Part shown: piece after piece, positions 9,557-50,058 of the stretch
How the letters are laid out: every line of letters starts with the position of its first letter
Position numbering within the stretch: position 1 is the first letter of the stretch
IMG/VR virus record: IMGVR_UViG_3300046674_000532
Length of the DNA stretch: 64,000 nt
From: a virus
Reading direction: 5' to 3' (one strand)
Translations under genes and position numbers: made by a program
Notes under the pieces: model-generated
What the model was told of the DNA's origin: nothing
What the model saw: the letters and a program-made list of their open reading frames with translations, nothing else
The model's database searches: none

Positions 9557-10660
9557 CTATACCGAGGGAACCTCCAGTCCAGCGCTGTCCGCGTACTCGT
9601 TCATCACACGCAGCGCCTTCACAAACGCACCCGTCGGCATCTTCCGGATGAGGTGCTGTGCAACGAAGTTCCCGTCGTCGTAGGGCAGGGTCCGCGGCGC
9701 AGGGTCCCCGCCGTCCTCGGCCTGCTGGACGGTCCGCGGTTCAGGGATCGGCTGCTCCGCCAGCACCACCGCGGGCGCATGGAGGTCCGGTGCGGTCTCC
9801 GGGACCGGAGCAGGGCCCGGCATCGGATCGGCACCTGCTGGCTTGGACTTGGAGACGTCCGGAATTATCACGCCGTGATATTCGGCGGGCCCGGCCGAGC
9901 GTTCCGGCGCCGGGTATGGCGCGGGTTGCGGCGAAGCCGACCGGGCGGCCGCCTGGCTTTGAGCGGCTTCGGCGCGCGCGTCGGCCTTCTCAACCTGCTC
10001 CTGCGGGGTCAGCTTCCCGAGGTTGCGGACGTGCTCCACCCTGCGTGCACCGGTGACGAGGTCCTTCTGCAGCTCGGGGGTGAGCTTCAGCAGGGACAGC
10101 TTGGTGGAGAGCGTGGCCTGCGGGATCCCGAGCCGTTTCGCGGCCTTGAGCTGGGACCCGTAGTGGTCCACCAACTGCTTGAGCGCGTGGGCCTCCTCGA
10201 GGTCCGTCATGTCGTCGCGGTGGTAATTCGCGATGAACGCGGCCTCGAGGAGGGTCTCGTCGGTGGCCAGCCGCGAGTTGTCGACCCTGACCGGGATGGT
10301 GGCCAGTCCGACGCGGCGGGAGGCCTCGAGGCGTCGGTGGCCGTCGATGACGACGTACTGGGCTCCGTCGTCGATGTCGTCGGCGCGGGCGGCCCGGTCA
10401 CGGAGATAGGCCTCTGTCGTTCCGACGACGATGGGCAGGATGATGCCGACCTGGCGGACGGACTCCACGGTCTCGTCGAGGTTGCGGAGGTGGTTGCGCG
10501 GGTTGTCGGGGTTGTCGCTGATCAGCGTGACGGGCAGTTCGGTGATGGCCGCGGTCGCTGCCGCGTCCCCTCCTATGGCGCTGTTGATGGCGTCGCGCCG
10601 TGGGCTGCGCCGGGCCGCGGCGAAGGCGGGCGCCGGGCCGAGGGTGTCGGCCTTGCTCAT
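9557..10660 (-). CDS. parB: ParB partition protein
   Basis: ParB-N box YVVIDGHRRLEASRRVG, HTH AAKRLGIPQATLSTKLSLLKL, 4-nt overlap with parA; carries one parS copy internally. Confidence 0.9.
   Translation of the reverse strand: MSKADTLGPAPAFAAARRSPRRDAINSAIGGDAAATAAITELPVTLISDNPDNPRNHLRNLDETVESVRQVGIILPIVVGTTEAYLRDRAARADDIDDGAQYVVIDGHRRLEASRRVGLATIPVRVDNSRLATDETLLEAAFIANYHRDDMTDLEEAHALKQLVDHYGSQLKAAKRLGIPQATLSTKLSLLKLTPELQKDLVTGARRVEHVRNLGKLTPQEQVEKADARAEAAQSQAAARSASPQPAPYPAPERSAGPAEYHGVIIPDVSKSKPAGADPMPGPAPVPETAPDLHAPAVVLAEQPIPEPRTVQQAEDGGDPAPRTLPYDDGNFVAQHLIRKMPTGAFVKALRVMNEYADSAGLEVPSV
9864..9882. repeat. parS-like palindrome copy 1 (inside parB)
   Basis: ATTATCAC-GCC-GTGATATT, an AT-rich 8-3-8 inverted repeat in a ~70% GC background. 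Confidence 0.7.
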
Positions 10661-11820
10661 CGGGTGGCCCCCTTCGCGACCTGCCGCATGGCCTCCGCCT
10701 GGTCGGACAGGGGTGCGTACGACAGCAGCGGCATCCGCTTGCGGACCGCTTCCCGCTGTTCCTTCAGATCACCGATGACGGCCAGGACTCTCGGGTCACC
10801 GATGGCCTTCCAGCTATCCAGGGAGGAGGTGGCGACGTAACCGCGGCGCGAGTCGTACAAATTGACGACCAGGCCGAGGTAGTCGACGTCCAGGCTGAGG
10901 TCTTCGCACAGGGCTTCGATCTGCTGGTCGAGCATGCTGTACGCGGTGGCGGAGGAGTCCTCGGCGAGGACGGGAATGATGACGCCGGACTTGCCCTTGG
11001 CCTCGTTGCGGCGGCGGCGCGCGTAGTAGAGGGCGGCGTCCATGGCGATGCCGAGGCTGGGCGGGCAGTCCACGACGATGACGTCGTAGTCGGCCTCGAG
11101 GGGACGAAGTGCCATCTCCAGGGCGACTTCCTTCTGGAAGCCTCGCTTGTTCGCGGACAGGACGGCGATCCTCGAGTCGAGGAGGAATCCGTCGAAGCAG
11201 GCGGGCAGTACGTGCAGTCGCTTCTCGAACCGCGGATCGTCTATGACCACGACCAGGTCGCGGAGGTCTCCCTTGTCCTCGCCGCACATGTGGGAGACGA
11301 GGCTGTCGTGGTCGGGTGCGATCTGCAGGACACCGAGTTGCTCGCTGAGGTGGCCTTGCGGGTCGTAGTCGACGAGCAGGACGCGCTTGCCCTGCTCGGC
11401 GTACGCCTGGGCGACGCCGGCGGAGATGGCGGTCTTGCCGACGCCGCCCTTCTGGTTGCAGACGACCTTGCGTTCGGCTTCTTCGTCCTGGGCGCCGTGC
11501 TGCGGGGAAGGGTTGGCGTCCAGCCACATCCGGACCGACTGCGCGAGGCCCTGGGTGTAGGAGACGGAGCGTTCGGTGCAGGCGTCCTTGAACGCGTCGT
11601 ACTGGCCGGACGGGAGCCATGTGGAGAACGAGCGGGCGCCGGCCGTGTCGATGTCCGGGCTGATGCCGGGTTCGGCGCGCCATTGGGCGATGCCCGCGGT
11701 GACGGCGTCCTGGATGTCCAGGCCGAGCTCGGCGGCGCGGACCTTGAGTGCTTGTTGGAGCGCCGAGGGCAGCTTCGACGCTACCTTTTCCCGGTCTCCT
11801 TGGAGATATGGAGAGGCCAT
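10657..11820 (-). CDS. parA: ParA partition ATPase with ~125-aa N-terminal extension (type Ia-like)
   Basis: Deviant Walker A CNQKGGVGKTAIS, LLVDYDPQG, VIVVDCPPS. The N-terminal extra domain is typical of autoregulating ParA/SopA. Confidence 0.9.
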   Translation of the reverse strand: MASPYLQGDREKVASKLPSALQQALKVRAAELGLDIQDAVTAGIAQWRAEPGISPDIDTAGARSFSTWLPSGQYDAFKDACTERSVSYTQGLAQSVRMWLDANPSPQHGAQDEEAERKVVCNQKGGVGKTAISAGVAQAYAEQGKRVLLVDYDPQGHLSEQLGVLQIAPDHDSLVSHMCGEDKGDLRDLVVVIDDPRFEKRLHVLPACFDGFLLDSRIAVLSANKRGFQKEVALEMALRPLEADYDVIVVDCPPSLGIAMDAALYYARRRRNEAKGKSGVIIPVLAEDSSATAYSMLDQQIEALCEDLSLDVDYLGLVVNLYDSRRGYVATSSLDSWKAIGDPRVLAVIGDLKEQREAVRKRMPLLSYAPLSDQAEAMRQVAKGATR

Positions 11821-11906
11821 GGCGTCACCTTACTGACTCTCCTGTCGCTCCTGTCACCCGGTTCGCCGTTCCTGACACGGTTTCATCCTTCCGGTGAGGT
11901 ACCGGG

Positions 11907-11925
11907 ATTATCACGGCGTGATAAT
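11907..11925. repeat. parS-like palindrome copy 2 (upstream of parA)
   Basis: ATTATCAC-GGC-GTGATAAT, perfect 8-bp arms. Confidence 0.7.
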
Positions 11926-11964
11926 TCGCCGGGGTCCAAGACGATCCGGCGCCGGGAAGCCGTG

Positions 11965-11983
11965 ATTATCACGCCGTGATATT
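11965..11983. repeat. parS-like palindrome copy 3
   Basis: ATTATCAC-GCC-GTGATATT; overlaps the last codons of small gene 11969..12100. Confidence 0.7.
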
Positions 11984-13472: not shown

Positions 13473-13919
13473 TCAGGCGGTGATCCGGTGGATCGGGATG
13501 CCGGCCTTCTTCGCCCGGCGCATGCAGTCCGCAGTGCCGGACGACTTGCCCACCTGCGCGGCGACGAGCAGCAGGGGGAGTTCGTCGATGATGGCCTGGT
13601 TGCGGCGGTGGCCGGCGACCGGACAGTACGTTCGACCGCCTGCCTTGGCGCGGCGGTGTCCGGGCTGGCATTCCGGTCCGCAGGGTCCTTCCCAGTCCGC
13701 GGGGCGCCGGCGGCGTGGGACGTGGTGGCGGATGGCCCAGGCGTCGCCCATGGCGTCGGCCCCGTCCTGGCAGTCGCCGTGGATGAGTTCGATGCCGCTG
13801 TATCCGACCTCGAGAGCCTCGTGCCAGACGAGGAGCAGGGTGGTCTCGAGCAGGCCCGGGTCGGGCCATGTGCGGCTGCCGGTGAGGCCGATCAGAGCGA
13901 GTTGTGGGGGCGCGTTCAT
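13473..13919 (-). CDS. DUF2493 / SLOG-superfamily protein
   Basis: LIGLTGSRTW...LIHGDCQDGADAMGDAWA...GHRRNQAII...SGTADCMRRAKKAGIP matches the DUF2493 (Smf/DprA-LOG-like) pattern; ATG at 13919 overlaps the rep-like stop. Confidence 0.7.
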   Translation of the reverse strand: MNAPPQLALIGLTGSRTWPDPGLLETTLLLVWHEALEVGYSGIELIHGDCQDGADAMGDAWAIRHHVPRRRRPADWEGPCGPECQPGHRRAKAGGRTYCPVAGHRRNQAIIDELPLLLVAAQVGKSSGTADCMRRAKKAGIPIHRITA

Positions 13920-15070
13920 GCGGTGGCTCCGGCCAGGCGGTGGGCGTTGTCGTAGAGCATCCGTCCGTACAGGGCGACCGCGGCGGCCTCGCCGGCCATG
14001 ACCGCGTAGTCGACGACCAGGCGGGGGTGCCGACGGCCTAGGTCCCTCAGCTCCTGGATCTCCCCGTCCGACAGGGGCACTTCCTCGACGTCGGGCAGGA
14101 CCTCGCCGTCCGGTTCCTGGCCGCGGACCACAGCGGCGGCAGCAGCGAAGGCAGCGTTCGGTGCAGTCGCGGCAGCCTCCTCGGCCTCCTGGACGGCACG
14201 GCGCGCCTGCTGGGCGGTTTCCTCGGCGAGGACGGACTGGATGAACTCGGCGGGCTTCGCGGGCTTCCACCGGCCGACCATTCCGATCAGCTCTGCGGCG
14301 ATCCGCTGGGCGTCCCAGCCGCGGTCCGTCCACGGGCGCAGGACGAACTCGAGGCGGCGCAGCGGCACCCGCTGGGTCCAGTTGACGAGGGCGCGCACCA
14401 GCCGAATGGTGCGCATCGCCCGTTCGACGTCGCCCGCGGTGCGGCGGTGCCCGTTCTTGCTGCTGGCCTGGTGGGGGATGAATCGTTCGCGCCCCGCCTG
14501 CGGGGTGTAGTTACAACCACTCTCTACCTTCAGCTTTCCCTCTTCCTCTACCCAGGTAAGGGAAGGGGGCGCACAGGCCTCGGAACTGGGGTTGTCCACA
14601 GGCGGGTTATCCACAGGGCGGTCCTGGCCCCGCTGGTCGATGACGATCCGCGCCGTGTACCCGGAGCCGACGACCGTGTGCCCCATCGCGTGGTCGTACA
14701 TGGGGGGGATGACGGCGGCGTACACGGTGGCGGTGGCGGCGTACCCGCCCATGCCGAGTGCCCGGCGGATGTTGGCCCGGGTTCCGTGCTGTACCCAGGC
14801 GAGCGCGCCCAGCTCCCGCAGGACGGCGATGTGCCGCTTGACGGTGGCCTTGTCGACGCCGAGGCGGTGCGCGGTCTCGAGCATGCAGTACCGGCCGTGC
14901 CCGGTGTCGTAGTCCATCCGCAGGGCGAGGTCCTCGGCGACCTTCTGCGTGGTGGCGTTCGCGCGGCCGTGGAGGCCGGCTGCGATCAGCCACGCGACCG
15001 CGCGAAGCCACCGTCGCGGGCCCGTTCGGCGCGAGGCAGTGCACGCCACCTCTTGGGCGGCGCCGCGCAC
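13916..15070 (-). CDS. winged-helix protein, candidate plasmid-type replication initiator
   Basis: wHTH VDKATVKRHIAVLRELGALAWVQHGTR. Positioned beside parAB, with two DnaA boxes inside the gene. Start uncertain (GTG 15070 or 15049); upstream part of ORF 13916..15421 looks non-coding. Confidence 0.55.
   Translation of the reverse strand: MRGAAQEVACTASRRTGPRRWLRAVAWLIAAGLHGRANATTQKVAEDLALRMDYDTGHGRYCMLETAHRLGVDKATVKRHIAVLRELGALAWVQHGTRANIRRALGMGGYAATATVYAAVIPPMYDHAMGHTVVGSGYTARIVIDQRGQDRPVDNPPVDNPSSEACAPPSLTWVEEEGKLKVESGCNYTPQAGRERFIPHQASSKNGHRRTAGDVERAMRTIRLVRALVNWTQRVPLRRLEFVLRPWTDRGWDAQRIAAELIGMVGRWKPAKPAEFIQSVLAEETAQQARRAVQEAEEAAATAPNAAFAAAAAVVRGQEPDGEVLPDVEEVPLSDGEIQELRDLGRRHPRLVVDYAVMAGEAAAVALYGRMLYDNAHRLAGATA
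14592..14615 (+). repeat. two tandem DnaA boxes (TTGTCCACA and TTATCCACA)
   Basis: Exact matches to the Streptomyces (14592..14600) and E. coli (14607..14615) DnaA-box consensus. Same orientation, 15 bp apart; they encode the duplicated peptide PVDNP-PVDNP of the rep-like protein. Confidence 0.6.
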
Positions 15071-15490
15071 GGGGTGGGCCCGACCTGCACTGTATTCGAT
15101 CAGGTGTTCGGTTTCGAGGGTGGTGGTGTGCGTGTCTCGTGTGGGCTGGGGGCACTGGGTGCCGCCCAACCGGGGGGAGATAAGCCGCGAATCGCCCGAC
15201 GAGGGGACCCTGAGCTGACAAGAGGGTGCCGAGTGCTGCACTATGTACCTGCCGTCCTGCGGACATGCAAAAGCCCGCTCGGTGGTGAAGGTGGTTCTGG
15301 GATGAACCTGAAGGTCGCTCGAATCTCGGGCCGGTCGCCAAACCGGATCTGAAGTTCGGGCCTTAGCTCCGAGGGCCAACTCGGAGCAGTTGCACGAAGG
15401 CCGCGCACGGTGCGCCAACACCAGCGGCCAGCGGTAGAGGAAGCGCCCCCGCCAAGGGGCACCGGACCTCCCGCTCAGGAAGTTCCTAGG

Positions 15491-23821: not shown

Positions 23822-24790
23822 ATGCTCATTTCGCCCCGCCCGGGCACCGACCGGGACAACCTCCTCCAGACCCTGCGGTCCGTGCACACCAGCGCCTCCA
23901 ACGAGCACGGCCGCGGCTACGACAACGCCTACAAGCGGCTGCTGGGATATCTGGAGTGGGCGATGGGCGCAGCCCGGCTGCTGCGCAACCAGATCAGCAC
24001 CGAGGACCTGCACGCCTTGGTACTGACGAAGGGCCACGACACCCTGCTGAACGGCATCGGCGACCTCGAGGGTTCACGACGGGAACGCCTGGTGAACCTG
24101 CTTGTCGACCAAGAACTCGCCGAGCGCACCGAGGCACTCGAGGCCACAGTCAACCTGCTCCAATCACTGAGGCACCGCTGGCCAGGACACGAACGGTTCG
24201 TTGTCGCCGACCCCAGCTTCTACATCCAGAACGAGATCAAGCTGGCCGACGTCGACCTGCACCAGGTGCTCGGCATCCGGGAAGAGGCCTTCATCCGGCT
24301 GCTGTTCCCCATCGTGGTGGTCGACGAGCTCGACGGGCTGAAGGACGCGGGCAAGCCGCGGCCCCGGTGGAGGGCAGCCCACACACTCGGCCTCCTCGAC
24401 GGGGTCCTGAACGGCGACACCGAAGGTGTTCTGCACCCCGGAACCTACGACCCCAGCAACGGGGAGACCCTGGGTAAAGTCATCGTGGAAATCGTCCTCG
24501 ATCCTCCCGGGCATGTCCGCCTACCGCTGGCCGACGACGAGATCGTCGACCGGGCGGTCGTCCTCCAAGCCCTCGGCGGCCGCGACGTACGTCTGCTGAC
24601 GTGCGACACCAGCCAGCACACCCGCGGCTGCGCGGCCGGCCTGCAGGTGACGAAGGTCGCGACGAAAGACCCCGGCCCCGAGCCCGACTGGGAGGCCGAG
24701 GGCAAGCCGGGGACCGGCGTACGGGCGCAGCGCCGCGCCAGGCAGGAAGCCAGGAACGGCAGTTCCGCCGAGGCGCCCGCGAACTCATGA
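23822..24790 (+). CDS. PIN-like nuclease domain protein with N-terminal helical domain
   Basis: Acidic PIN-type positions RFVVADPSFY, IVVVDELDGLKD and RLLTCDTSQ; converges on and overlaps the integrase gene by 6 nt. Confidence 0.6.
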   Translation: MLISPRPGTDRDNLLQTLRSVHTSASNEHGRGYDNAYKRLLGYLEWAMGAARLLRNQISTEDLHALVLTKGHDTLLNGIGDLEGSRRERLVNLLVDQELAERTEALEATVNLLQSLRHRWPGHERFVVADPSFYIQNEIKLADVDLHQVLGIREEAFIRLLFPIVVVDELDGLKDAGKPRPRWRAAHTLGLLDGVLNGDTEGVLHPGTYDPSNGETLGKVIVEIVLDPPGHVRLPLADDEIVDRAVVLQALGGRDVRLLTCDTSQHTRGCAAGLQVTKVATKDPGPEPDWEAEGKPGTGVRAQRRARQEARNGSSAEAPANS

Positions 24791-25933
24791 CCCGGCAGGC
24801 CCGGCCTCCTTGACGGCTGCCTTCCCGATCTGCGCGAGCGGGTTGTTCTCGCCCTGGGCGTCGTCCTCGTCTACGTAGCCGATCAGCGCTTTGGACTGGT
24901 CGTCCCAGCCGCCGTGCCGGCCGATCTGCACGATGTCGACGCCCGCGGTCCGGGCCGACTTCACGAAGCCGCGGCGGGAGGAGTGGGAGCGCCACCGGCC
25001 CGGCAGCCCGGTCCGCTCGATGGACCGCTGGATGACGTCGGAGGCGGCCTCGGTCGTCAGCCGTCCGTCCTCGGCGCCGATAGGCTCACCGCCACGCTGC
25101 ATCTCCGGGTTGAGGTAGCCCCAGCGGTCCATGCGCAGGAACAGGGGGCCCACGGTGTGTCCGTTGTCGGCGAGGGCGGCAACCAGGGCGCGGACCGCGC
25201 GGACGGCGCACAGGTCGGGTTCGGGGTCGAGCGGAATGTCGGGGGTCTGCCACATCTTGCGCTTCTTGCGGTAGACGCGGACCTGCAGACCGCCGTCGGG
25301 GAGATCGGTGAAGCTGTCCGGCCAGTTCAGCGGCACGAGTTCGCTGCCGCGCGAGGCCAGCGCGTGACCGAGCAGCATCAGGGCGGCGTCCCGCTTCCCT
25401 GCCAGGGTGGTGCGGTCCAGCTCACCGAGCGCGGTGCGCAGGACGGTCCGGTCGGCGGGGCTCGCCTTCTGCGGGCGGGCGGCCGGGTCCTGGGCGAGGG
25501 CGAGCTGCTCGCGGTAGCCGGCCACGACCTTCCGGGCGCCCATGGTGTCCGGGGGCCGGTACCCGGCGGCCCGGTGGGAGGAGCGGATGGACGCGATGAC
25601 GCGGTCCATCGTGTTCGGTCCGTACGGGCGTCCGGTGCGCGGCCGCGGAGTGCGCTTCAGGTAGGAGAGGTACTCGGTGACGGTCTGCGGCGCAGCCGGC
25701 AGCGGGCGGCGGCCGACGGACAGGCACCATGCGGTGAAGCGGTCCATGTCGCCCTTGTACGCCTTGGTGGTCTCCTCCGGGATTCCGGCCTTGACATCCT
25801 GCTGGGCTTCCTCGGACAGCCAGGCGTCCGGGTCCTCTTCCGTCAACGGGACGGCGGGGGCCCGGTCTTCGGGGATGGCGGGCAGCCGGTCGTCGACCAG
25901 CTCCGCGTCGACCACCTCGTCGCGCATGCTCAC
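24785..25933 (-). CDS. int: tyrosine integrase
   Basis: Catalytic signature present: ALASRGSELVPLNW (Arg), WRSHSSRRGFV (HxxR), GRHGGW (His), ALIGYVD (Tyr). Confidence 0.85.
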   Translation of the reverse strand: MSMRDEVVDAELVDDRLPAIPEDRAPAVPLTEEDPDAWLSEEAQQDVKAGIPEETTKAYKGDMDRFTAWCLSVGRRPLPAAPQTVTEYLSYLKRTPRPRTGRPYGPNTMDRVIASIRSSHRAAGYRPPDTMGARKVVAGYREQLALAQDPAARPQKASPADRTVLRTALGELDRTTLAGKRDAALMLLGHALASRGSELVPLNWPDSFTDLPDGGLQVRVYRKKRKMWQTPDIPLDPEPDLCAVRAVRALVAALADNGHTVGPLFLRMDRWGYLNPEMQRGGEPIGAEDGRLTTEAASDVIQRSIERTGLPGRWRSHSSRRGFVKSARTAGVDIVQIGRHGGWDDQSKALIGYVDEDDAQGENNPLAQIGKAAVKEAGPAGS

Positions 25934-38770: not shown

Positions 38771-39667
38771 CTACAGGGCCTTGTAGGCGGGCCACCAGGT
38801 GACGGCCAGCGTGGACGTGAGCGTGTTGTCGGTGGCGTTCCACCGAATCTCGTTGAGGCCCGGGGTGAGGACGAACTGGTCGATGCGGGAGACGGCGGTG
38901 AGGGGGGCGCCGCCGCCGTTCTCGCGCAGCACGGTGCGCCAGCCGGGCCGGGTGTCGATCTGCACCCACTCCCCGGCGGCCAGCGTCGTCTGCACGGTCA
39001 GCGTCCGGCCGGAGCCGACGTGGGTGATGGAGGGGTTGGCGCACGGCCCGTTGACCCGCAGAACGGGTGCGGTGGCCTTGGTGCCGTCGACCTGGATGTA
39101 GCCGGGGCGGGCGATTGCGGATGCGGCTCCGGCGATCGTGAACGGGAACTGCAGGGGGAAGGTCATGCCGCCCTCGGTGAGGCTGCCGAGCGGCATGGAC
39201 GTCGTCTCCGCCTGGTCGGCGTAGTAGAGGTGGTCCTGCGCCTGGAACTCGATGTCGAGCGGCGCGTAGCCGAAGATGACCTGTTCCAGGTTGGGTTCGA
39301 ACTTTCGCAGGCGGCCGCGGACGACGCGGGTGGTACGGCCGGGGAACTTCAGCCGCAGGTCCATGGTCGTGCCGGCCTGCCCGCGGACGGCGTCGGTGTC
39401 GGCGAGGTCCTGGAGGTCGGCGGCGATGTCGAGGACGCCGGGCACGTCCTCGACGACCTTGACGGCGGCGTCGATGCGGATGAGGCGGCCGGCGTAGTAG
39501 TCGGTGCCCAGCCAGGTGCCGTCCTCCCCGGGCGGGTCCACGTCGGCGGTGCGCAGCGGGGGCTGGCCGAGGCCTTCGACGGTTTTGATGGGGATGCTGG
39601 TGCCGCGTCCGATGAGGACGCCGCCGAGTTCGTGCTGGAAGTCGCTCAGCTCGATGGGTGTGCTCAT
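38771..39667 (-). CDS. distal tail (Dit-like) protein
   Basis: ATG at 39667 overlaps the tape-measure stop; first gene after the tape measure, 298 aa. Confidence 0.65.
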   Translation of the reverse strand: MSTPIELSDFQHELGGVLIGRGTSIPIKTVEGLGQPPLRTADVDPPGEDGTWLGTDYYAGRLIRIDAAVKVVEDVPGVLDIAADLQDLADTDAVRGQAGTTMDLRLKFPGRTTRVVRGRLRKFEPNLEQVIFGYAPLDIEFQAQDHLYYADQAETTSMPLGSLTEGGMTFPLQFPFTIAGAASAIARPGYIQVDGTKATAPVLRVNGPCANPSITHVGSGRTLTVQTTLAAGEWVQIDTRPGWRTVLRENGGGAPLTAVSRIDQFVLTPGLNEIRWNATDNTLTSTLAVTWWPAYKAL

Positions 39668-42600
39668 CCGCGTGCCCCTACTCCGCCGCGGGCCAGGCGC
39701 CGCAGCTGGTAGCCCTGACGGCTGTCGATGTCGCGGGCCAGGTCGCGGTCGGACCGGCGGTCGCCGATGTGGTAGTGGTTCTCGCCGATCAGGGGGGCCT
39801 GCTGACGGATGATGATGATCTTTTCTTTGGTGGCGTCCCGCAGGCCCACGCCGAACCGTCCGGCGACGTCGGCCAGGACCGGCATCGCGGAGCTGCGCTT
39901 GTTCGCGCCGAGCGGGATGTACGCCTCGCCGCCGGTGGACGGCTCGGCGAAGGTGACGGCGCCGCCGCTGGTGGAGTAGATTCCGGAGCGGATCCCGCCG
40001 TCGGCGTACGCGAGGCCCTTGTTGGCCTTGCCCAGGTCGGACAGGAAGCGGGTGGCGCGGGTGCCGAGGCTCTTGCTGATCTGGCTCTTGGCCTTGTTGG
40101 CGACCGTGATGATCTCGTCTTCGCCCAGTGCGGTGGTCGCGGCGACGTCGTGCAGGCCGGTCTTGCTCGTCTTGATCGCGGCGATGATGGAGACCAGTTC
40201 GGACACCTCGTCGGCCGTCAGGGCCTTGTTCGCGGTCTTCGCTGCGTCGTTGGCCTTGGACGCCTTGCCCTTGTCCTTGACCGCGGCCGCGGCGAGGTCC
40301 TGCGCGGCCTGGTCGTTCTGGGCGGCCAACTGGGCGGCGAGGTCCCCGAAGCCTTCGGCGGCCAGCTTGGCCAGGTTGTCGCTGAACGTCTTGTTCAGCA
40401 CGTTGGCCTTGCCCAACTGGCGGGTGTAGTCCTCGAGCGTGGCCTTGGCCGTCTTCTGCAGGTCCCGGAGCGCCTTGGACATGTCGTTGATGTACTTGGT
40501 GGAGCCGGTGGCCATTTTGTGGGCGAGTTTCATGCCGTCCTCGCCCATCGCGGCGAGGGCGTCGGCGACGTCCCCGCCGGCCCGGCGGGCGACGGCCTCG
40601 AGGTCCTTGTTCCAGGCGGTGGTGGCCTTCGCGGCGGACTTCAGCTTCTTCTCCACCGCGCCGATGTCGAAGTACTCGACCTCTTTGGTCTTCCACTTGC
40701 CCTTGACCTTGACCTTGACCTTCTTGGTCTTGTGGCCTGCCTGCCCGGCGTCGGAGGCGGAGTAGAGGGACCCGCTGGTGGGGTCGTAGCGCCAGTCGGT
40801 GACGTTGCCGTCGGCGTTCCAGTTGATGCCGCCCGGGTTGCCGCCCAGACGGCGGACGATCTCTTCGGTGATGGCGCGGGAGCGGGGCCGCTTGGAGGCG
40901 GCGAACGGAACGTAGCCCTCGCCCTGCGTCTCGGGCTCACCCCACACCCGCCACGATCCGCCGGGGGCGATCTGCGCGACGTGGTTCTCGGCGCCGCCAG
41001 CGAAGCGCTGTACGCCGCCGCGCTGGATGCCGCCGTTGGCGTAGTGGTCGACGATGCCGCCGTTGGAGTATCCGGCAAGGTTCTTGTTGGTTCGCGCGAC
41101 GGTCGCTTCGACGTTGATGGTGTGCCGGACGGTGGTGAGCGTGACGGTTTTGCTGCGGATCCTGTCGATCGCGGCCTGGATGGCGCGGGCGGTCGCGCTG
41201 GCCCGGTCGATGACGCCTACGGGGACGTTCTTGCCCTTGACGCTGGACAGTTTCGCGATGAGCAGGTCGAGGTCGGCGCGAGCTCCCTGCGTCGGTGCGG
41301 TGATCTTGTATTCGCGGGTGCCGGGGATCAGCTTGATTTTGTAGCCGAGGTCCTCTAGTTCCCTCTTCGCGTCCTCGCCCAGAGCGTCAATCTTGATGGT
41401 CTTCTTGGTGGGCTGCGCTTTGAACTGGGCCTGCACCGCCATCAGTTCGGCGAGGGTGGAGTCGACGCCGTGGGTGGACAGCAGGATGGACACCTGTCCG
41501 GGGATCAGCCCCATGGAGTCGGCGACCCTCCCGGCCTGCGTCGCGGTCAGCCCGTACCCGCCCATCAGGTCGATGGCGGCCTTGCGGGACTTCTCCATCT
41601 CCGCGCGCGCGGCCGCCATCGACTCGGGCAGTCCCTTGCCCTGCGAGTCGGCAAAGTCGTAGGCGGCCACCGCCGCGGAGGCACTTCCGTCGGCGACGGT
41701 GTTGAGGGTGTTGAAGAGGTCCTGGCCGTTCTTGGTGGTGGTGTCGAGCTGCCCGTTGGTCTTCACCAGGGCTTTGCCGTAGCCGGCCGTGTGGTCGATG
41801 CCGTTCTTCATCGCCTCGTTGGCGTTGGAGATGGCCTCGTTCACCCGGGCCTGCGCGGCCTGCAGGGAGACGCTGCCGCCGGACAGCAGGTCCAGGGCTT
41901 CGCGCAGGGCGCGGGTACGGGTGTCGGCGTCGCCGGTCCTGTCGGCCAGCGCGCCGACGGCGGTCTTGAGCCGGTCGTAGGCGGTGACGCCGTTGCTGGC
42001 CCCGTTGACGCCTTCGTTGTAGTCGCGGGCGTCTGCGGCGGCTTTCTTGAAGTCACCGGACAGGCCGGACAGCCCTTGGCGCAGGTCGTCTGCTGCCTGG
42101 CCCTGTTTGTTGAGGGCATCGCCGCCGACACCGGACTCGGGGTCCAGAACCCAGTGGTGGTTCGCTGCGGCGACATCCTCGAGGTGTTTTTGCAGCTTGC
42201 CCAGGCTGGTGCCCTGGTTGGTGTAGGCGTCGACCAGTTCGGACATCGGGACTTTCGCGGTCCGCGCGAGGTCGACGAGGCGCTGCTGTCCGTCCAGCGT
42301 TGTTTTGATCTTCTGCTGCATCAGGTTCTCGGTGGCGATGGAGCGCACCGATTCGTTCACGACGCCGTTGGAGTCGCGTAGTGCCTGGGACAGGCTGCTG
42401 ATCTGCTGCTGGTGCTCGGCGGCTGCCTGGGCGGCCTGCTGCTGCTTGGTGGCGAGGAAGCCGAGTCCGATGGTGGCGGCGGTGATGGCCAGGCCCCACG
42501 GTCCGCCGAGGGCGCCCATGAGGCCGCTGCCGAGTCCGCGGGCGGCGGTCCCGGCGGCTGCGCCGATCCCGCGCAGGGTGCCGGTGAAGCCGGTTCCGGC

Positions 42601-44757
42601 GGCTGCGGCGGTACGGAACGAGGCCCCCATCCGGCCGATGATCGGGACCCGGGCCTGGAGGACGGAGAGCGCTGCCCCGTACCGGGTCAGGGACACGCCG
42701 GCCGCGGCGGCCAGCGACCGCTGCACGGCCATCTGCCCGCTCAACGATCGGAAGGCACCGGTGACGCGTCCGGACACGGTGCCGGCGAGCGCTGCCATAC
42801 GCGGCTGGATGCGGGAGGTCAGCATCGCGGCGAGGACGAACTGCTGGATCGGGCCGGGCAGCGCGCCGAACGCGGAGACCAGCGTGCCGACGAGGTGGCC
42901 GATCGGGCCCAGTACGACGGAGACCGCTGATACGGCGGCCATGACGAGGTCCAGGGCTCCCACGACGATGTCGAGGGTGGAGGCCACGGTGCTGCCCTCG
43001 CCGGTGAGGTCGCCGAAGGCGGACACGACGGGCTGGACGCCGTCGGCGAGGTTGCCGAGGACGTCCATGACCATCTTCCCGGCGTTGATGATCAGGTGGA
43101 AGAAGGCGGCGATGCCTTCGCCCGCGAGGTCCTTGAACGGCTCGGCCAGGCCTTCCGCGGAGTCCTTGATCCCGTCGAACTGGGCGCGGGCGGCCGCGAG
43201 AAGGTCGGGCCCGAACACGGAGCCCAGGTCGTTCATGTGCTTGAAAAACTGTTCGATCTTCGGGGTGGCGTCGGACAGGCCGGCAGTGATGCCGCGGGTG
43301 AGGAACTCCAGGCCGGGCGCCATGCCCTGGTAGATCGTCAGGCCGGTCTGCTTGGCCTGGGTCTTGAGCTGGAGCATGGCGCCGGCGAGGCCCTTGCCCT
43401 TGGCGGCGGCGATCTCGGAGGCGGCGCCGGTGTCGGACACCGCGGCCATCAGGTTGTCGAAGCTGTCGACGCCCTGGTGGGCGAGGGCGATGGCGCCGGA
43501 CATGGCCGGCTTGCCCATGGACTTCTTGACGGCGGCCGCGAAGTCCTTCTGGCTCATCTTGTGCTGGGCGTGGGACAGGCCGTCGATGACGTAGCGCAGG
43601 CCTTTGAACTGCCCGGACGCAGACCACGCTTCGATGCCCATGGCCTTGAGGCCTTCGATCATCTGCGGGGTGGGGGCGGCCAGGTTGGCCATCATGCCGC
43701 GCAGTGTCGTACCGGCGGTCTGGCCGAGGATGCCGGCCTTGCCGAGCATGCCGACCGCGGACGCGGTCTCCTGCATGGTGACGCCGAGCCCGTGCGCGAC
43801 CGGGCCCGCGTACTTCATGGCGTAGTAAATGTCGATAATGTCGCCGGATGCGGCATTTGCCGTAGCGGCGAGGGTGTCGGCGGCCTTGCCCGCCTGGTCG
43901 GCGCCCATGCCGAACTGGTCCATCATGTCGCCGAGATACTTCGCGCTGTCGGCGGCGTCTACCTGCGCGGCGGAGGCGAGGATCAGGCTGGCGCGGGTGG
44001 AGGAGATGGCCTGGTCGGTACGGAACCCGGCCTTGGCGAGTTCCACCATCGCCTCGGCGGCGTCCGCGGCGGTGGCGCCGGGGATGCTGAGGTCGTTGCC
44101 GAGCTGGTTGGCGGTCGCCCCTGCGCGCTGCATCTGCATGGCGGTCGCGCCGGTCGTCGCCCCGAACGCGTTCATCGACTGCTGGAGTTCGCCGCCCATC
44201 TTCAGCAGCTCGGCGCCGCCGATGACGAACGCCCCGCCGGTCAGCAGGTTGGCCAGGGACATGAGCTGGCGGCGGGCGTGCCCGGACTCGTCACCGATGC
44301 GGCGCAGGCCACGGACGCTGCCGCCGCCGACCCGGGCCAGGCGTGAGTCGGCGCGTCGGGCCGCGTCGGCCAGGCGCAGCAGGTCCCGGACCGCACCGTC
44401 GATCTGCCCGGACATGCGGGCGAGTTGCCGGGCGGTGGTGCGGGAGTGATCGCCCAGGGTGTTGACGTGCCGCTGGGCGCGCTGCGCGGCATCCCCGTAG
44501 CGGCCGAGGTGGCGGGCCGCGGCCTGGGCGCCCTCTCCCAGCCGGGTCAGGTTGCGGCCTGCCGTGCGGGCTTCGCGACCCAGGGTGCGCAGGTGCCGGG
44601 TCGCGGTGTCGGCGGCCTGCCCGAGTTCCTTGACCTCGGTCTTCGCGGTACGTGCGGCATTCCCGAGGCTGCGGGCGTGCTTCGCCGACGACTTCAGCGA
44701 CTGGGCGAGATCATTACCGTGCCCGCGGATGTCCACGGACAAGTTCCAGTTGGCCAC
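39664..44757 (-). CDS. tape measure protein
   Basis: 1697 aa, Ala/Gly-rich helical repeats with hydrophobic central segments. GTG start at 44757; located after the G/G-T chaperones. Confidence 0.9.
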   Translation of the reverse strand: MANWNLSVDIRGHGNDLAQSLKSSAKHARSLGNAARTAKTEVKELGQAADTATRHLRTLGREARTAGRNLTRLGEGAQAAARHLGRYGDAAQRAQRHVNTLGDHSRTTARQLARMSGQIDGAVRDLLRLADAARRADSRLARVGGGSVRGLRRIGDESGHARRQLMSLANLLTGGAFVIGGAELLKMGGELQQSMNAFGATTGATAMQMQRAGATANQLGNDLSIPGATAADAAEAMVELAKAGFRTDQAISSTRASLILASAAQVDAADSAKYLGDMMDQFGMGADQAGKAADTLAATANAASGDIIDIYYAMKYAGPVAHGLGVTMQETASAVGMLGKAGILGQTAGTTLRGMMANLAAPTPQMIEGLKAMGIEAWSASGQFKGLRYVIDGLSHAQHKMSQKDFAAAVKKSMGKPAMSGAIALAHQGVDSFDNLMAAVSDTGAASEIAAAKGKGLAGAMLQLKTQAKQTGLTIYQGMAPGLEFLTRGITAGLSDATPKIEQFFKHMNDLGSVFGPDLLAAARAQFDGIKDSAEGLAEPFKDLAGEGIAAFFHLIINAGKMVMDVLGNLADGVQPVVSAFGDLTGEGSTVASTLDIVVGALDLVMAAVSAVSVVLGPIGHLVGTLVSAFGALPGPIQQFVLAAMLTSRIQPRMAALAGTVSGRVTGAFRSLSGQMAVQRSLAAAAGVSLTRYGAALSVLQARVPIIGRMGASFRTAAAAGTGFTGTLRGIGAAAGTAARGLGSGLMGALGGPWGLAITAATIGLGFLATKQQQAAQAAAEHQQQISSLSQALRDSNGVVNESVRSIATENLMQQKIKTTLDGQQRLVDLARTAKVPMSELVDAYTNQGTSLGKLQKHLEDVAAANHHWVLDPESGVGGDALNKQGQAADDLRQGLSGLSGDFKKAAADARDYNEGVNGASNGVTAYDRLKTAVGALADRTGDADTRTRALREALDLLSGGSVSLQAAQARVNEAISNANEAMKNGIDHTAGYGKALVKTNGQLDTTTKNGQDLFNTLNTVADGSASAAVAAYDFADSQGKGLPESMAAARAEMEKSRKAAIDLMGGYGLTATQAGRVADSMGLIPGQVSILLSTHGVDSTLAELMAVQAQFKAQPTKKTIKIDALGEDAKRELEDLGYKIKLIPGTREYKITAPTQGARADLDLLIAKLSSVKGKNVPVGVIDRASATARAIQAAIDRIRSKTVTLTTVRHTINVEATVARTNKNLAGYSNGGIVDHYANGGIQRGGVQRFAGGAENHVAQIAPGGSWRVWGEPETQGEGYVPFAASKRPRSRAITEEIVRRLGGNPGGINWNADGNVTDWRYDPTSGSLYSASDAGQAGHKTKKVKVKVKGKWKTKEVEYFDIGAVEKKLKSAAKATTAWNKDLEAVARRAGGDVADALAAMGEDGMKLAHKMATGSTKYINDMSKALRDLQKTAKATLEDYTRQLGKANVLNKTFSDNLAKLAAEGFGDLAAQLAAQNDQAAQDLAAAAVKDKGKASKANDAAKTANKALTADEVSELVSIIAAIKTSKTGLHDVAATTALGEDEIITVANKAKSQISKSLGTRATRFLSDLGKANKGLAYADGGIRSGIYSTSGGAVTFAEPSTGGEAYIPLGANKRSSAMPVLADVAGRFGVGLRDATKEKIIIIRQQAPLIGENHYHIGDRRSDRDLARDIDSRQGYQLRRLARGGVGARG

Positions 44758-44799
44758 CGGTACGCCCCTCCCTCGCTGCTCGACTCGTGCGGTGTGCGG

Positions 44800-45731
44800 T
44801 TACCGGGCGCCGAGTTCGGCGGCCAGCTGCTGCGCTGCGTGGATGTGCGCGGGCAGCAGCAGGACCTTCAGGCCGCCCCCGGCCTGCCCGTCGGGGATCT
44901 CCTTCTGCCTCATGGCGATCTCCTCGCAGCCGAAGCAGTTGTGCGTGACGGCGATGTAGGAGTCCACGTATTCGCCGTTCTCGTCGACCCACTCCGATTC
45001 GCGGGTGCCGCACTGCGGGCACATCCCGCGCAGGTAGTCGGCGTAGGCGAGGGCCTTGTCCCGGTCGCCGGCCGACCAGGTGCCGTCGCCGAGGCCCCGG
45101 AACTGCGAGTACGGGATGCGGTACTCGCGGCACAGGGCCATCTCGGCGCGGAACCGTAGGTCATCGGTCAGCCTTTTCCCAGGTCGGCCCGGGTGGTGTT
45201 CTGCACCCCGTAGGCGGCGTTGAACATCGCGTTGGCCTCGGCAAGCGACCAGGACTCGAGGAGCTCGCGCGCTTCGGTCTCGGTCATACCGTCGACGGAC
45301 GCGGCCGCGATCAGCGCGGCGGGGTATCCCTCGCCCCACTCCTTGCCGTCTTCGGATTCCGCCTCGGACGCCGGATGCGCCTTGAAGACGGCTTCGTAGG
45401 CCGGGCGGGGCAGGGCGCGGAAGCGGATGGCGATGGCGACCTGGTCGTAGGCGGCGTTCGCCTCGTCCCGCTCCCGGGTGGCGGTGGCGAGGTCGGCGGC
45501 CGCCTCAGCGTCCTTGGGGTGGGCCTTGGCGTAGTTCTCGGCCAGGTCGAACGCGCGGGCGGCCCGGTTGTGGCGGTCGCGGACGGCCTGGTCGTCGCAG
45601 ATGACGAAGGTGGTCTCGGCGAGCGACCGGTTGCGGAGCCGGTTCATCTTGGCGGACCAGTGCGCGTCGGCGGCCACAGCCTGCGCGGGCGGCTCGGGGG
45701 TGGCGGTCTGCCGGGTTCGGGTGGTGGTCAT
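44800..45731 (-). CDS. tail assembly chaperone G-T fusion made by -1 programmed frameshift
   Basis: Shifting -1 at G_GGA_AAA continues as GKRLTDDLRFRAEMALCREY..., exactly the reading frame of ORF 44800..45339. Confidence 0.75.
45168..45731 (-). CDS. tail assembly chaperone (G-like)
   Basis: 187 aa directly upstream of the tape measure; ends ...ADLGKG* across the slippery site. Confidence 0.8.
   Translation of the reverse strand: MTTTRTRQTATPEPPAQAVAADAHWSAKMNRLRNRSLAETTFVICDDQAVRDRHNRAARAFDLAENYAKAHPKDAEAAADLATATRERDEANAAYDQVAIAIRFRALPRPAYEAVFKAHPASEAESEDGKEWGEGYPAALIAAASVDGMTETEARELLESWSLAEANAMFNAAYGVQNTTRADLGKG
45174..45180 (-). other. -1 ribosomal slippery heptamer GGGAAAA
   Basis: Minus strand reads CTG GGA AAA GGC TGA; X_XXY_YYZ in the zero frame, 2 codons before the G stop. 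Confidence 0.75.
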
Positions 45732-45748
45732 GGCGGGTGGGTCCTCCG

Positions 45749-45797
45749 GTTCGGGAAGGGGACCCGGCCGGGCGCCGATGGGCGCCCCTTCCCGAAC
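45749..45797 (-). terminator. 13-bp-stem hairpin between the major tail and chaperone genes
   Basis: GTTCGGGAAGGGG-23 nt-CCCCTTCCCGAAC; the classical position for attenuating transcription after the major tail protein gene. Confidence 0.6.
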
Positions 45798-45846
45798 GCG
45801 TCGGGGCCCGGCCGGGCGTAGAGGGGGTGTTGCGGTCCGGCTGGGG

Positions 45847-46650
45847 TCAGCCGCCCGGCGTGGTCGTGGAGACCGTGACGGTCGGTGTGGTGCCGCCGGT
45901 CAGGGTCGCGGTCGCGGTCATCTGCGGGACGTCGGCGCCGTCGTAGGCGCCACCGAACGTGACGACGACCGGGGTTCCCGGGTGCGGGCCGCCGGTGCAG
46001 ACGACGTCGCCGGACGCGATGTTCGACAGCGCCTCGAGCGCGGACTGCACGGCGGACGCGGCAGCGTTGTACACGATGGCCGCGGTGGTCTGCCCGGAGA
46101 AGGTCAGCGTGTACGAGCCACCGGTGGGGGTGCCGGTGATCGTGATCGTCTGGACCTCGTCCGTGCCCGCGGCGGGCACCGGTGCGCCCTGGAGCGGCCG
46201 GCTCGTGATGGAGCAGGTGGCCATGAACTTGGCGGCCTCGTTGTCGGCGGTGTACTGCGGCGACTGGGAGGCGACCCGGATCGGGAAGACGTCCATCGAG
46301 TTGTTCGCGGGGACGTCGCCCTTACGCATGATCACGATGTAGGCGTTCGTGCCCTTCGCGAAAAGCTGCTCCAGGTCGGCGTCTTCCTCGTCCTCGTAGA
46401 ACGTGAAGCTGCTGGAGTCGGCCTTGTCGCTGCCGGGGATGGTGGAGTCGTAGGTGTCCGCCATGTCCGGCGTGTCGATCTCGTTGTTGGCGACCGTCCA
46501 CCCGTCCATCGCGGCGATGTAAGGGGAGAACTCGGTGCCGGCGGAGATCTCGCTGCGCGTGGGCAGCATGTCGTCGGACGCGATCGACGGCACGAAGAAG
46601 AACTTCGACGTACCGCGCCGCATGTACTTCTTCGGCTTGGCAAGCAGCAT
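45847..46650 (-). CDS. major tail protein with C-terminal ~100-aa add-on domain
   Basis: ATG at 46650 with AAGGGG RBS. Its position and size are as expected for a major tail protein. C-terminal domain is shared with the decoration protein. Confidence 0.75.
   Translation of the reverse strand: MLLAKPKKYMRRGTSKFFFVPSIASDDMLPTRSEISAGTEFSPYIAAMDGWTVANNEIDTPDMADTYDSTIPGSDKADSSSFTFYEDEEDADLEQLFAKGTNAYIVIMRKGDVPANNSMDVFPIRVASQSPQYTADNEAAKFMATCSITSRPLQGAPVPAAGTDEVQTITITGTPTGGSYTLTFSGQTTAAIVYNAAASAVQSALEALSNIASGDVVCTGGPHPGTPVVVTFGGAYDGADVPQMTATATLTGGTTPTVTVSTTTPGG
45850..46155 (-). repeat. copy A of the shared surface-domain module (tail)
   Basis: VQTITITGTPTGGSYTLTFSGQTTAAIVYNAAASAVQSALEALSNI...; related at DNA level to 51332..51631. 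Confidence 0.7.
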
Positions 46651-46777
46651 TCGTGGGCCCCTTGGTCCCGGGGCCTTCGAGGTCTGTGGGACCCGGCCCC
46701 TTACACGGTGTGTATGGGTGGCGGCCACCTGCCTGGTGGCGTCCGCGTGGGGTCCCGCCGCGGTGCGGTCATACAGC

Positions 46778-46794
46778 CCTGACCTTCGGTCAGG
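46778..46794 (-). terminator. short hairpin spanning the stop codon of gene 46790..47239
   Basis: CCTGACC-TTC-GGTCAGG; possible attenuator ahead of the major tail gene. Confidence 0.3.
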
Positions 46795-47239
46795 TGGAAG
46801 TCAGGTCGAACCTGAACCTGCTGGCACTGCTCATGATTCCATCGGCGGCGTCAGGTGTTCCCCCCGCTTCGACCTCGGCGGCCCGGCCGATGACCCTGGC
46901 GCCGGACACGGCCAGGGCGTGAAGCCACGCGCGGGTGACCGGGTTGCGGCCGAGGAGGACTTCGCGGGCGGTGTCGGCCAGCCACTCCATCTGGTCCTGG
47001 GTGCCGTGCGAGTCCGGGGCGGCCAGGTCGCGGGCGGAGATGCAGTTGACCTGGTAGATGAGGCTGCAGTCCTCGTTCAGGTCCGAAAACGGCGCTCCGG
47101 AGGTCTGCCGGTCGATGAAGTGCAGGATGTAGTACTCGGTCGGGTTCCCGTCCGGGATCACGCCCTCCCCGACCGGCTTCCCGGTGCCGGTGGCGAGCAG
47201 GGTGACGAGCGCGTTGGTGACCAGCCGCGTTTTGATCAC
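46790..47239 (-). CDS. tail terminator / neck protein
   Basis: GTG at 47239 (GTGA overlap), 149 aa, immediately upstream of the major tail gene. Confidence 0.6.
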   Translation of the reverse strand: MIKTRLVTNALVTLLATGTGKPVGEGVIPDGNPTEYYILHFIDRQTSGAPFSDLNEDCSLIYQVNCISARDLAAPDSHGTQDQMEWLADTAREVLLGRNPVTRAWLHALAVSGARVIGRAAEVEAGGTPDAADGIMSSASRFRFDLTST

Positions 47240-47622
47240 AGCAGGACCTCCGCGAGGGCGAGGCGCATCGTCGCCATCAGCGTGGCCTCGATGAACGGCA
47301 GGGCCGGCTGGACGTGCGGGAACGGCGGCTGGTTGTAGTTGCGGCCGATGCTGTCCATGCCGACGAAGCCGAACTCGAGGCGTCGGCCCTGGGGCGCGTT
47401 GGTGCCCAGGGTGCAGATCGCCCCGTGGGGAATCCTTCGGGTGTCGGTCTGCCAACTGTTGCGGTAGGCGCCGGTGATGACGTTCGGTCCGGGCCGGCCG
47501 GAGGCGTTGCCCCGGATCCTGGCCTGCCCGAGCGTGCCGGTGTGCTCGACGGCGTGCGCGATGGCCGGGCCGACCTTCTTCGCGGCGAGCTCGAGCTTGG
47601 CGGCCAGTTCATCCGGGGTCAC
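47236..47622 (-). CDS. HK97 gp10-like head-tail joining protein
   Basis: GTG at 47622 (GTGA overlap). TGAYRNSW...GTNAPQGRRLEFG...PFPHVQPAL matches the gp10-family pattern. Confidence 0.65.
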   Translation of the reverse strand: MTPDELAAKLELAAKKVGPAIAHAVEHTGTLGQARIRGNASGRPGPNVITGAYRNSWQTDTRRIPHGAICTLGTNAPQGRRLEFGFVGMDSIGRNYNQPPFPHVQPALPFIEATLMATMRLALAEVLL

Positions 47623-49317: not shown

Positions 49318-49661
49318 CGCCGGGGCCGTTCGCGGAGGAAGAACACGCCCAGCGCGTCGGGGTCGCTGGCTTCGGGGTCCACCGGGTCGTCAGGCGCCGG
49401 CGGCTGACCGGCTTCGAGTGCGGCGATCTGCCGTTCGTAGGCGGCGATGTTCGCAGCGGTGTTGATGGCGACGACAGACACGACGGTGATCCCGGACGGC
49501 TGGGCCAACAGGGCGGCGAGCCGTTCGCGGGCGATCTCGATGGCGACGGCGCGGGCGGTGCCGAGGCGGGTGTAGCGGGATACGAGGTCGGCCAGGTCGG
49601 TGTCGGTGCCGAGTTGGGCGAGCAGCCACGCTCTGACGGCGGTGTTCACTGCTGCCTCCAT
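49314..49661 (-). CDS. head-tail connector (gp6-like) protein
   Basis: ATG at 49661 (MEAAVNTAVRAWLLAQLG...), 115 aa. Confidence 0.5.
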   Translation of the reverse strand: MEAAVNTAVRAWLLAQLGTDTDLADLVSRYTRLGTARAVAIEIARERLAALLAQPSGITVVSVVAINTAANIAAYERQIAALEAGQPPAPDDPVDPEASDPDALGVFFLRERPRR

Positions 49662-50055: not shown

Positions 50056-50058
50056 GGC

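Follow-up and report, generated by a model that had tools for sequence, protein, structure and literature searches.

The partition systems most similar to the parA-parB-parS cassette analyzed in this work, which lies at positions 9557-11983 of a 64,000-nucleotide stretch of viral DNA (IMG/VR record IMGVR_UViG_3300046674_000532; this whole stretch is hereafter called the window), are those of the plasmids SCP1 and pSV1 (Streptomyces coelicolor/violaceoruber). The linear plasmid SCP1 carries two par systems, and its centromeres were mapped by chromatin immunoprecipitation followed by sequencing (ChIP-seq) (McPhillips et al., Nucleic Acids Research 2026; PMC13245405). In that study, the ParB2 peaks fell on three identical sites of 19 bp in the parAB2 region, including one within parB2, and the parS2 site is given in Table S3 as attatcacggcgtgataat (PMC13245405). 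ParB2 binds parS2 in vitro with a dissociation constant (KD) of 377 nM and does not bind parS1 or the chromosomal parS, the chromosomal ParB does not bind parS2, and a 15-bp core is enough for ParB2 binding (PMC13245405). Moreover, hydrolysis of cytidine triphosphate (CTP) by ParB2 is stimulated by parS, the protein accumulates on closed DNA only in the presence of CTP, and its residues G109, H110, R111, and R112 are required for CTP binding (PMC13245405). The single parABS of pSV1, a plasmid reported with only this par type, is nearly identical to SCP1 parABS2 (PMC13245405). Judged from its sequence, the window cassette is a type-I partition system of the same SCP1 parABS2/pSV1 type, with a helix-turn-helix (HTH) ParB for which DNA binding and CTPase activity are predicted. 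It consists of the following elements:

9557..10660, minus strand: parB, 367-aa HTH-type ParB (open reading frame (ORF), Pfam, and 63% identity to ParB of NZ_CP109276)
9864..9882, no strand: intragenic parS copy, inside the parB linker after the HTH (codons E-Y-H-G-V-I-I)
10657..11820, minus strand: parA, 387-aa partition ATPase (ORF, Pfam, and 82% identity to ParA of NZ_CP109276)
11907..11925, no strand: parS copy, exact ATTATCACGGCGTGATAAT, 87-105 nt upstream of the parA start
11965..11983, no strand: second upstream parS copy, with one mismatch outside the 15-bp core

Both genes are intact, with catalytic and CTP-binding motifs kept, and they overlap by 4 nt (ATGA, 10657-10660). The Walker-type ATPase of ParA begins at about residue 116 and carries the deviant Walker A motif NQKGGVGKT (residues 122-130); Pfam assigned this protein to AAA_31 (E-value 8.7e-26) and CbiA (6.7e-19). 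In a sequence search of the PDB it matched Soj-type/chromosomal-type ParAs, which are the closest solved structures for the ATPase core, and ParA of P1 or F was absent from these matches. ParB comprises the ParB_N (aa 39-145, E-value 4.7e-12) and HTH_ParB (aa 150-227, E-value 3.6e-10) domains, followed by a divergent Pro/Ala-rich linker, which holds one parS copy, and by a C-terminal domain. Its DGHRR motif occupies residues 106-110, with G107-H108-R109-R110 located inside the ParB_N/CTPase domain, and its PDB sequence matches were Caulobacter ParB, Spo0J, and Noc.

Screening of the whole window with the pattern ATTATCACGSCGTGATAAT, with up to three mismatches allowed, revealed three AT-rich palindromes of 8-3-8 layout, which differ from the pattern at one (9864-9882), no (11907-11925), and one (11965-11983) position, respectively. 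The mismatches sit at the outermost arm positions and leave the 15-bp core TATCACGSCGTGATA of each copy unchanged. No further copy was found in the 64 kb at four mismatches, or with the 15-bp core and two mismatches, and these searches detected none downstream of parB within the window. Chance or base composition as the origin of the palindromes was ruled out, as none of 100 dinucleotide-preserving shuffles contained a match to the pattern; the G+C content of the window is 65-73%, and therefore three AT-rich 19-mers are not a composition effect. The flanks of the palindromes are alike (CCGSC...CCGG), within the window and likewise across homologues. The intragenic copy forces the codons TAT, ATA, and ATT, all of which are rare in Streptomyces. 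The two upstream copies lie 58 nt apart (centre to centre) and together span 87-163 nt upstream of the parA ATG. We also observed that the TGA stop (within 11969-11983) of the ORF located upstream of parA falls inside the distal copy, and that in one of the homologous loci (L001) an annotated hypothetical gene upstream likewise ends about where a parS copy starts. In all these respects the ORFs, the Pfam assignments, the palindrome searches, and the structural genes recognized with PHROGs (see below) bear out the preliminary description of this stretch, which, from the letters alone, had reported a complete parA-parB-parS cassette in a tailed-phage genome, with a 4-nt gene overlap, a KGGVGKT motif in ParA, a DGHRR box plus HTH in ParB, and three 8-3-8 repeats with similar flanks.

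The copy at 11907-11925 is identical to SCP1 parS2, and the other two copies differ from it at one outer position. For the comparison of proteins, a linear, 387-kb, SCP1-like plasmid of S. anthocyanicus (NZ_CP109276), in which residue numbering is exactly that of ParB2, was used as a stand-in for SCP1; two S. anthocyanicus plasmids, NZ_CP109276 among them, contain within parB a perfect (100%) match to the 50-mer parS2 probe of PMC13245405. The window ParA is 82% identical to that of NZ_CP109276 along all 387 residues, without gaps. For ParB the identity is 63%, with the divergence located mostly in the C-terminal linker and domain and a higher identity in the N-terminal half; the residues mutated in ParB2 (N55, R57, G109, H110, R111, and R112) correspond to N53, R55, G107, H108, R109, and R110 of the window ParB. 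The sequence of the repeats is thus that of parS2 and the window proteins appear to be close homologues of the SCP1-type system, which supports the earlier suggestion that the repeats are centromeric ParB sites. The two cassettes have in common the 19-bp parS, which occurs three times at the operon, including once within parB, overlapping parA and parB genes, a 387-aa ParA, and a ParB with the GHRR box and HTH. They differ in their carriers, as SCP1 is a 356-kb linear conjugative plasmid and the window cassette is placed on a tailed-phage genome of about 90 kb, in the clustering of two parS copies directly upstream of parA in the window, and in the divergent linker and C-terminal domain of ParB. 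Furthermore, SCP1 has two par systems, whereas the cassette appears to be the sole par system in the 64 kb examined.

A scan for homologues (one genome per species) yielded 47 Streptomyces loci encoding ParB relatives; together with plasmid loci, a full parB was available in 51 cases, and upstream sites were counted in 46 loci. The palindrome is present inside parB, at about nt +763, in 49 of the 51 loci; 37 of them read it in frame 1, as Y-H-G-V-I-I, and the other 12 in frame 2, as (L/V)-S-R-R-D-N. The site carries 1.76 bits of information per position and the flanks 0.3-0.6, and the 15 core positions are essentially invariant, which agrees with the published 15-bp minimal site. As the intragenic site is read in two frames within a poorly conserved linker, the alignment of these loci shows a pattern of selection acting on the DNA and not on the peptide. 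The idea that the palindrome is a by-product of a conserved peptide was ruled out by the same two reading frames, by the variable linker, and by the central S base, which switches the encoded residue between Gly and Ala. Upstream of parA, a site is found 60-130 nt before the start in 33/46 loci, and at least two sites are present within 250 nt in 14/46. Variant sites, ATTTTCACGGCGTGAAAAG, were identified in two loci (L043, at about 4749, and L048, at about 2562 and 4680), with the same change in both arms (TTTTCAC-GSC-GTGAAAA versus TTATCAC-GSC-GTGATAA). Such a symmetric change is what recognition by a dimer predicts, and these two loci may represent a subgroup of this ParB family with diverged specificity.

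Two further observations were made on the homologous loci. L044 (at about 4792, 4873, and 4951), and also L034, L042, and L045, carry two to three parS copies inside parB, spaced by approximately 57-81 nt in the linker-coding region, so that the parB linker seems to be an expandable carrier of centromere copies. In addition, cassettes of the same type, with parS copies, are located near one end of two records labelled as complete Streptomyces chromosomes, i.e., L007 (NZ_CP172447, at 8.63 of 8.76 Mb) and L012 (NZ_CP172448, at 8.93 of 9.28 Mb), which may reflect an exchange between plasmids and chromosome arms.

The cassette is carried by what, on sequence grounds, is a part of a pZL12-like Streptomyces phage-plasmid. 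The tailed-phage structural module spans 39664..56882 (minus strand) and includes the following genes, recognized with PHROGs:

33789-37457, minus strand: tail fibre-like protein
39664-44757, minus strand: tape measure protein (E-value 3e-99)
50059-51120, minus strand: major capsid protein (major head protein, E-value 2.7e-58)
52938-54827, minus strand: portal (E-value 2.9e-11)
55260-56882, minus strand: terminase large subunit (E-value 8e-102)

The par region itself gave no megablast match among 50,697 phage records, and a close phage homologue of ParB was not found in the same records, in which the best tblastn matches had 31-35% identity and covered 37-39% of the query. The megablast matches of the par region were instead to 180 Streptomyces or Kitasatospora plasmids, with the best nucleotide identity of about 83% over parAB. 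Collinearity at 75-80% identity was seen between larger pieces of the window and 87-93-kb Streptomyces plasmids carrying phage structural genes together with ParA/ParB, namely CP075614, NZ_CP134214, NZ_CP108500, CP108843, NZ_CP109172, and NZ_CP012383 (S. ambofaciens ATCC 23877). The exact window ParA was also found on a metagenome contig of 97,174 bp from the Joint Genome Institute (JGI), and many homologues on contigs of about 90 kb. Among the collinear replicons is the Streptomyces phage ZL12 (pZL12, GQ919031), a circular molecule of 90,435 bp. Reportedly, the plasmid-phage pZL12/phiZL12 was described by Zhong et al. in 2010. The relatives of the window are deposited as separate plasmids, several of them marked circular (including NZ_CP109172 and GQ919031). 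The Hatfull group cites pZL12 as the one temperate actinobacteriophage not belonging to cluster A that replicates extrachromosomally (PMC7157519). Its relative pSLE1 is annotated with ParA, ParB, and two "integrases" (PMC4487206), and phage-plasmids encoding ParA and ParB domains are also noted in a survey of plasmids from actinobacteria (PMC10023795).

The window and pZL12 share the order of genes parB, parA, pZL12.20c homologue, and recombinase, with parB-parA at about 9-11 kb and the recombinase at about 25 kb; both also have a phage structural module, in which the nucleotide identity of the tape-measure region is about 75%. The same layout of sites is also preserved, with one palindrome inside parB and one upstream of parA. 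The cassettes themselves are nevertheless different: ParA of pZL12 has 219 aa, is devoid of the N-terminal domain, and shows similarity to the window ParA in the surroundings of Walker A only; the two ParBs share 31% identity; and the palindrome of pZL12 is GGTTTACCGCGGTAAACC (18 bp), located at 8839-8856 (inside parB) and 10388-10405 (about 110 nt upstream of parA), which is probably the pZL12 parS. A motif search of GQ919031 detected no parS2, parS1, or chromosomal parS motifs. The possibility that pZL12 carries the same cassette was ruled out by the other type of ParA, the 31% identity of ParB, and its own palindrome. This comparison suggests that par cassettes are exchanged at the same position among related phage-plasmids, and that incompatibility drives this exchange.

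The window also encodes a recombinase:

24785..25933, minus strand: Cre-like tyrosine recombinase, earlier labelled "integrase" (Pfam, PDB sequence search, and synteny with pZL12)

This was the only tyrosine recombinase found in the window, in which not every ORF was scanned. Its match to Pfam Phage_integrase (E-value 2.5e-5, 24.6 bits) is under the 27.1-bit gathering cut-off. All 17 sequence hits in the PDB are P1 Cre or the Cre-derived Tre (E-values from 2e-7 to 5e-6). Residues 51-356 align with Cre 37-327 with the catalytic residues in register, HSSRRG aligning with HSARVG of Cre and the near-C-terminal GY with NY, and the protein is 29% identical to pZL12.36c, encoded at the syntenic position. 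P1 Cre circularises incoming DNA and resolves plasmid dimers, and, by its similarity to Cre, the window enzyme probably serves circularisation or dimer resolution, not integration into the chromosome. It should be stressed that, because the enzyme is Cre-like and has a pZL12 homologue at the same position, its presence is no argument for integration. No tRNA genes were found in the window by a tRNA scan; other attachment sites were not searched for.

A separate issue is the N-terminal part of ParA and the DNA directly upstream of its gene, where the following features were distinguished, the two DNA elements in an upstream alignment of 42 loci:

aa 10-102 of ParA (approximate; about nt 11515-11793), minus strand: predicted N-terminal tandem ribbon-helix-helix (RHH) domain (AlphaFold2 and Foldseek)
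11821..11838, minus strand: conserved element AGTCAGTA[A/T]G[G/C]TGACG[C/T]C, which abuts the parA ATG
11868..11888, minus strand: conserved GGGTGAAAC-N3-GTCAGAAC-like element, lying between the upstream parS pair and the parA ATG

AlphaFold2 models were built for the full ParA and for residues 1-112 (predicted local distance difference test (pLDDT) of 82), and both contain two beta-alpha-alpha units, E10-17/H19-31/H36-49 and E63-70/H73-83/H88-102 (pLDDT 81-92). With Foldseek, the domain matched approximately 110-residue F-plasmid relaxosome chains of the PDB (template modelling (TM) scores of 0.64-0.67, probability 1.00), which are unnamed in the search output and which we take to be TraY, and, more weakly, DndE, AvtR, and VirC2. 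TraY, AvtR, and VirC2 are single-chain tandem RHH proteins. Pfam run on the domain alone gave only a faint RHH_10 match (E-value 0.048), and the only proteins retrieved with the domain as query were 10 ParA fragments, stand-alone RHH proteins being absent. The domain is thus predicted from the models to be a single-chain tandem RHH. The element at the parA ATG forms a GTCAG..CTGAC palindrome in many loci, often without a clear Shine-Dalgarno sequence, and we infer that it is a candidate -10 box of a leaderless mRNA and/or an operator; both elements located between the parS sites and the ATG may constitute a leaderless promoter and/or a target of the RHH domain. A scan of 9300-12500 for sigma-70 promoters and intrinsic terminators found none, the sigma-70 consensus being uninformative for Streptomyces promoters. 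We tentatively propose, as a possibility still open to considerable doubt, that ParAs of this type form a distinct type-I subclass, in which a Soj-like ATPase is joined to a tandem-RHH domain that binds GTCAG-N4-(C/G)TGAC at the start codon and autoregulates a possibly leaderless parAB mRNA. If this is true, RHH autoregulation would be functionally analogous to the autorepression exerted by type Ia ParAs, although it would rely on another fold. The paper on SCP1 parABS (PMC13245405) contains no discussion of the N-terminal domain of ParA, and literature searches found no description of a tandem-RHH/ParA fusion. This domain and the start-codon element are the only aspect of the locus that we did not find described.

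The cassette was further compared with other groups of partition systems. With type Ia (P1 ParABS, F SopABC) it shares a large HTH-type ParB (367 aa, with ParB_N and HTH_ParB). The window ParA is similar in size to type Ia proteins (387 aa), but it has a predicted tandem RHH instead of the winged HTH, and its sites are placed upstream of parA and inside parB, whereas the type Ia centromere lies downstream of parB. Membership in type Ia was therefore rejected on the basis of the predicted N-terminal fold, the Soj-type PDB matches, and the position of the sites. Neither does the cassette resemble type Ib (TP228 ParFG, pSM19035 delta/omega), which combines a small ParA without an N-terminal domain with a small RHH centromere-binding protein. 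The likeness to P1 is broader, since it includes a plasmid prophage, a large ParA, an HTH ParB, and a Cre-type recombinase, i.e., partition along with dimer resolution/circularisation. In P1, the N-terminal winged HTH of ParA binds parOP, and parS is a composite site with an IHF site, placed downstream of parB. The window differs in its Soj-like ATPase core and in its sites, which are simple palindromes. With chromosomal ParABS, the window shares the TCAC/GTGA half-site core, common with GTTTCACGTGAAAC, and the best PDB matches of ParB, which are chromosomal ParBs and Noc; the differences are the three extra central bases of the window palindrome and the extra N-terminal domain of ParA. A parS copy inside the parB gene is known also from B. 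subtilis spo0J. Finally, in cluster A mycobacteriophages (RedRock and others), prophages are kept extrachromosomally with parABS, and the likeness extends to the exchange of such actinobacteriophage cassettes between related genomes, but there parABS replaces the integration cassette and the genomes have about 50 kb (PMC7157519).

Some interpretations in the preliminary description are modified by these results. ParA had been called type-Ia-like, which holds for its size and the presence of an extra N-terminal domain, and fails for the fold predicted for this domain, a tandem RHH, and for the Soj-type core. The label "integrase" has to be abandoned, as the PDB sequence matches, limited to P1 Cre/Tre, fit plasmid circularisation and dimer resolution. 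As for the proposed extrachromosomal maintenance, it gains from the collinearity with pZL12 and with the 87-93-kb separate plasmids, and for this particular element it is still an inference.

On the whole, we consider with good confidence that the window derives from a temperate tailed phage, the prophage of which replicates as a low-copy plasmid partitioned by the parABS2-type operon and three parS sites. In such a system, ParB dimers would recognise the 15-bp core at the three sites, bind CTP via the GHRR box, close into a clamp, and slide to the flanking DNA, which would result in a partition complex over the par region. The ParA ATPase would then position and separate sister copies along hyphae and into spores. 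The two sites upstream of parA probably also allow autoregulation of the operon by ParB, and the tandem-RHH domain of ParA may add a second layer of control. What was observed in the window and its relatives is the integrity of the genes, the identity of the site to parS2, its conserved positions, the selection at the DNA level, and the synteny with plasmid replicons. Binding of the site, binding and hydrolysis of CTP, and sliding were shown by others for the homologous ParB2 and are carried over to the window by homology; by the same analogy, these activities are presumed to stabilise this particular element.

Several points weigh against the above proposal. The window covers 64 kb of a contig of up to approximately 97 kb, and neither circularity nor an extrachromosomal state was directly seen. 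The proteins were compared with an SCP1-like plasmid and not with SCP1 itself, and homologous cassettes occur also near one end of records labelled "chromosome" (L007, L012). Binding, CTPase activity, and stabilisation are, for this element, predictions. Furthermore, deletion of parB2 left SCP1 with approximately 94% retention versus approximately 99% in the control (PMC13245405). As this deletion hardly changed the retention of SCP1, a stabilising role of the parABS2 type is to be regarded as presumed. The last result would also fit a cassette that is biochemically active but whose main role is other than stabilisation, e.g., intramycelial spread, host-range flexibility, incompatibility with or exclusion of related phage-plasmids, or silencing of the par region. 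Intramycelial movement, alternative hosts, and incompatibility are discussed by the authors of that study, who also found that the second par system of SCP1 is dominant (PMC13245405), and the different par cassettes present at the same position in related phage-plasmids (pZL12) form the pattern that incompatibility-driven exchange would give. We regard this explanation as unlikely, since in the window there is no other parS2, parS1, or chromosomal-type parS motif and a second par system was not found (not every ORF was scanned), a low-copy phage-plasmid of about 90 kb would need active partition, and pSV1, as stated above, is reported with this par type only.

It is very unlikely, in turn, that the two upstream palindromes serve mainly as operators for autorepression of parAB, by ParB or by the RHH domain of ParA, with the intragenic copy alone acting as the centromere. 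The intragenic copy is indeed the most conserved one (49/51), the upstream copies vary in number and distance (33/46 at 60-130 nt) and lie close to the conserved promoter-like region, and in the non-phage plasmids L002 and L003 no copy other than the intragenic one is seen within 1.5 kb. However, the 15-bp core is common to all three copies, so the same protein should bind all of them, and operator and centromere roles can go together, as they do in type Ib systems and in KorB. In the case of SCP1, ChIP peaks of ParB2 were found on all three identical sites (PMC13245405). An integrated or decaying prophage, in which the par cassette would be a relic of a plasmid ancestor, seems extremely improbable. 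A tyrosine recombinase and the cassettes in records labelled as chromosomes could be quoted in its favour, but the recombinase is Cre-like and conserved in plasmid-borne relatives, both par genes are intact, with conserved catalytic and CTP-binding motifs and a perfect core at three sites, the tRNA scan (the only search made for attachment sites) was negative, and the whole window is collinear with free plasmid replicons. A phage-plasmid partitioned by the parABS2-type cassette thus remains the preferred explanation.

Apart from the genes discussed above, the following minus-strand genes were distinguished in the window:

1887-2564, 3366-4379, 16739-17665, and 18999-19955, minus strand: further accessory genes of phage type, i.e., two WhiB-like regulators, a DUF5131 (Gp37/Gp68-family) protein, and a Rad52/Rad22-type recombinase
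12354-13400, minus strand: DUF721/DciA-family gene (as annotated in relatives), upstream of parA
13473-14333, minus strand: SLOG/YspA-like protein, upstream of parA
13916..15421, minus strand: conserved homologue of pZL12.20c (39% identity over 370 aligned residues), upstream of parA

The pZL12.20c homologue gave no Pfam or NCBIfam match and probably starts downstream of its first GTG; as a guess, it is a candidate replication (initiator) or regulatory protein.

Neither this type of element nor its type of partition system is new to the literature: pZL12-like phage-plasmids were described in 2010 and 2015, and the partition system, down to the precise centromere sequence, in 2026. The finding leaves the current understanding unchanged and is therefore of modest interest. 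It does, however, allow the centromere, the ParB specificity class, and the probable incompatibility group of the element to be named from sequence alone, and a plasmid with SCP1/pSV1-type parS2 present in the same host should compete with the element for ParB. The swap of par cassettes with the same layout of sites but other palindromes parallels that of cluster A mycobacteriophages. As the second par system dominates in SCP1, while the cassette appears to be the only one in the 64 kb examined, this phage-plasmid or a cultured relative would be a better test bed for parABS2-type partition than SCP1.

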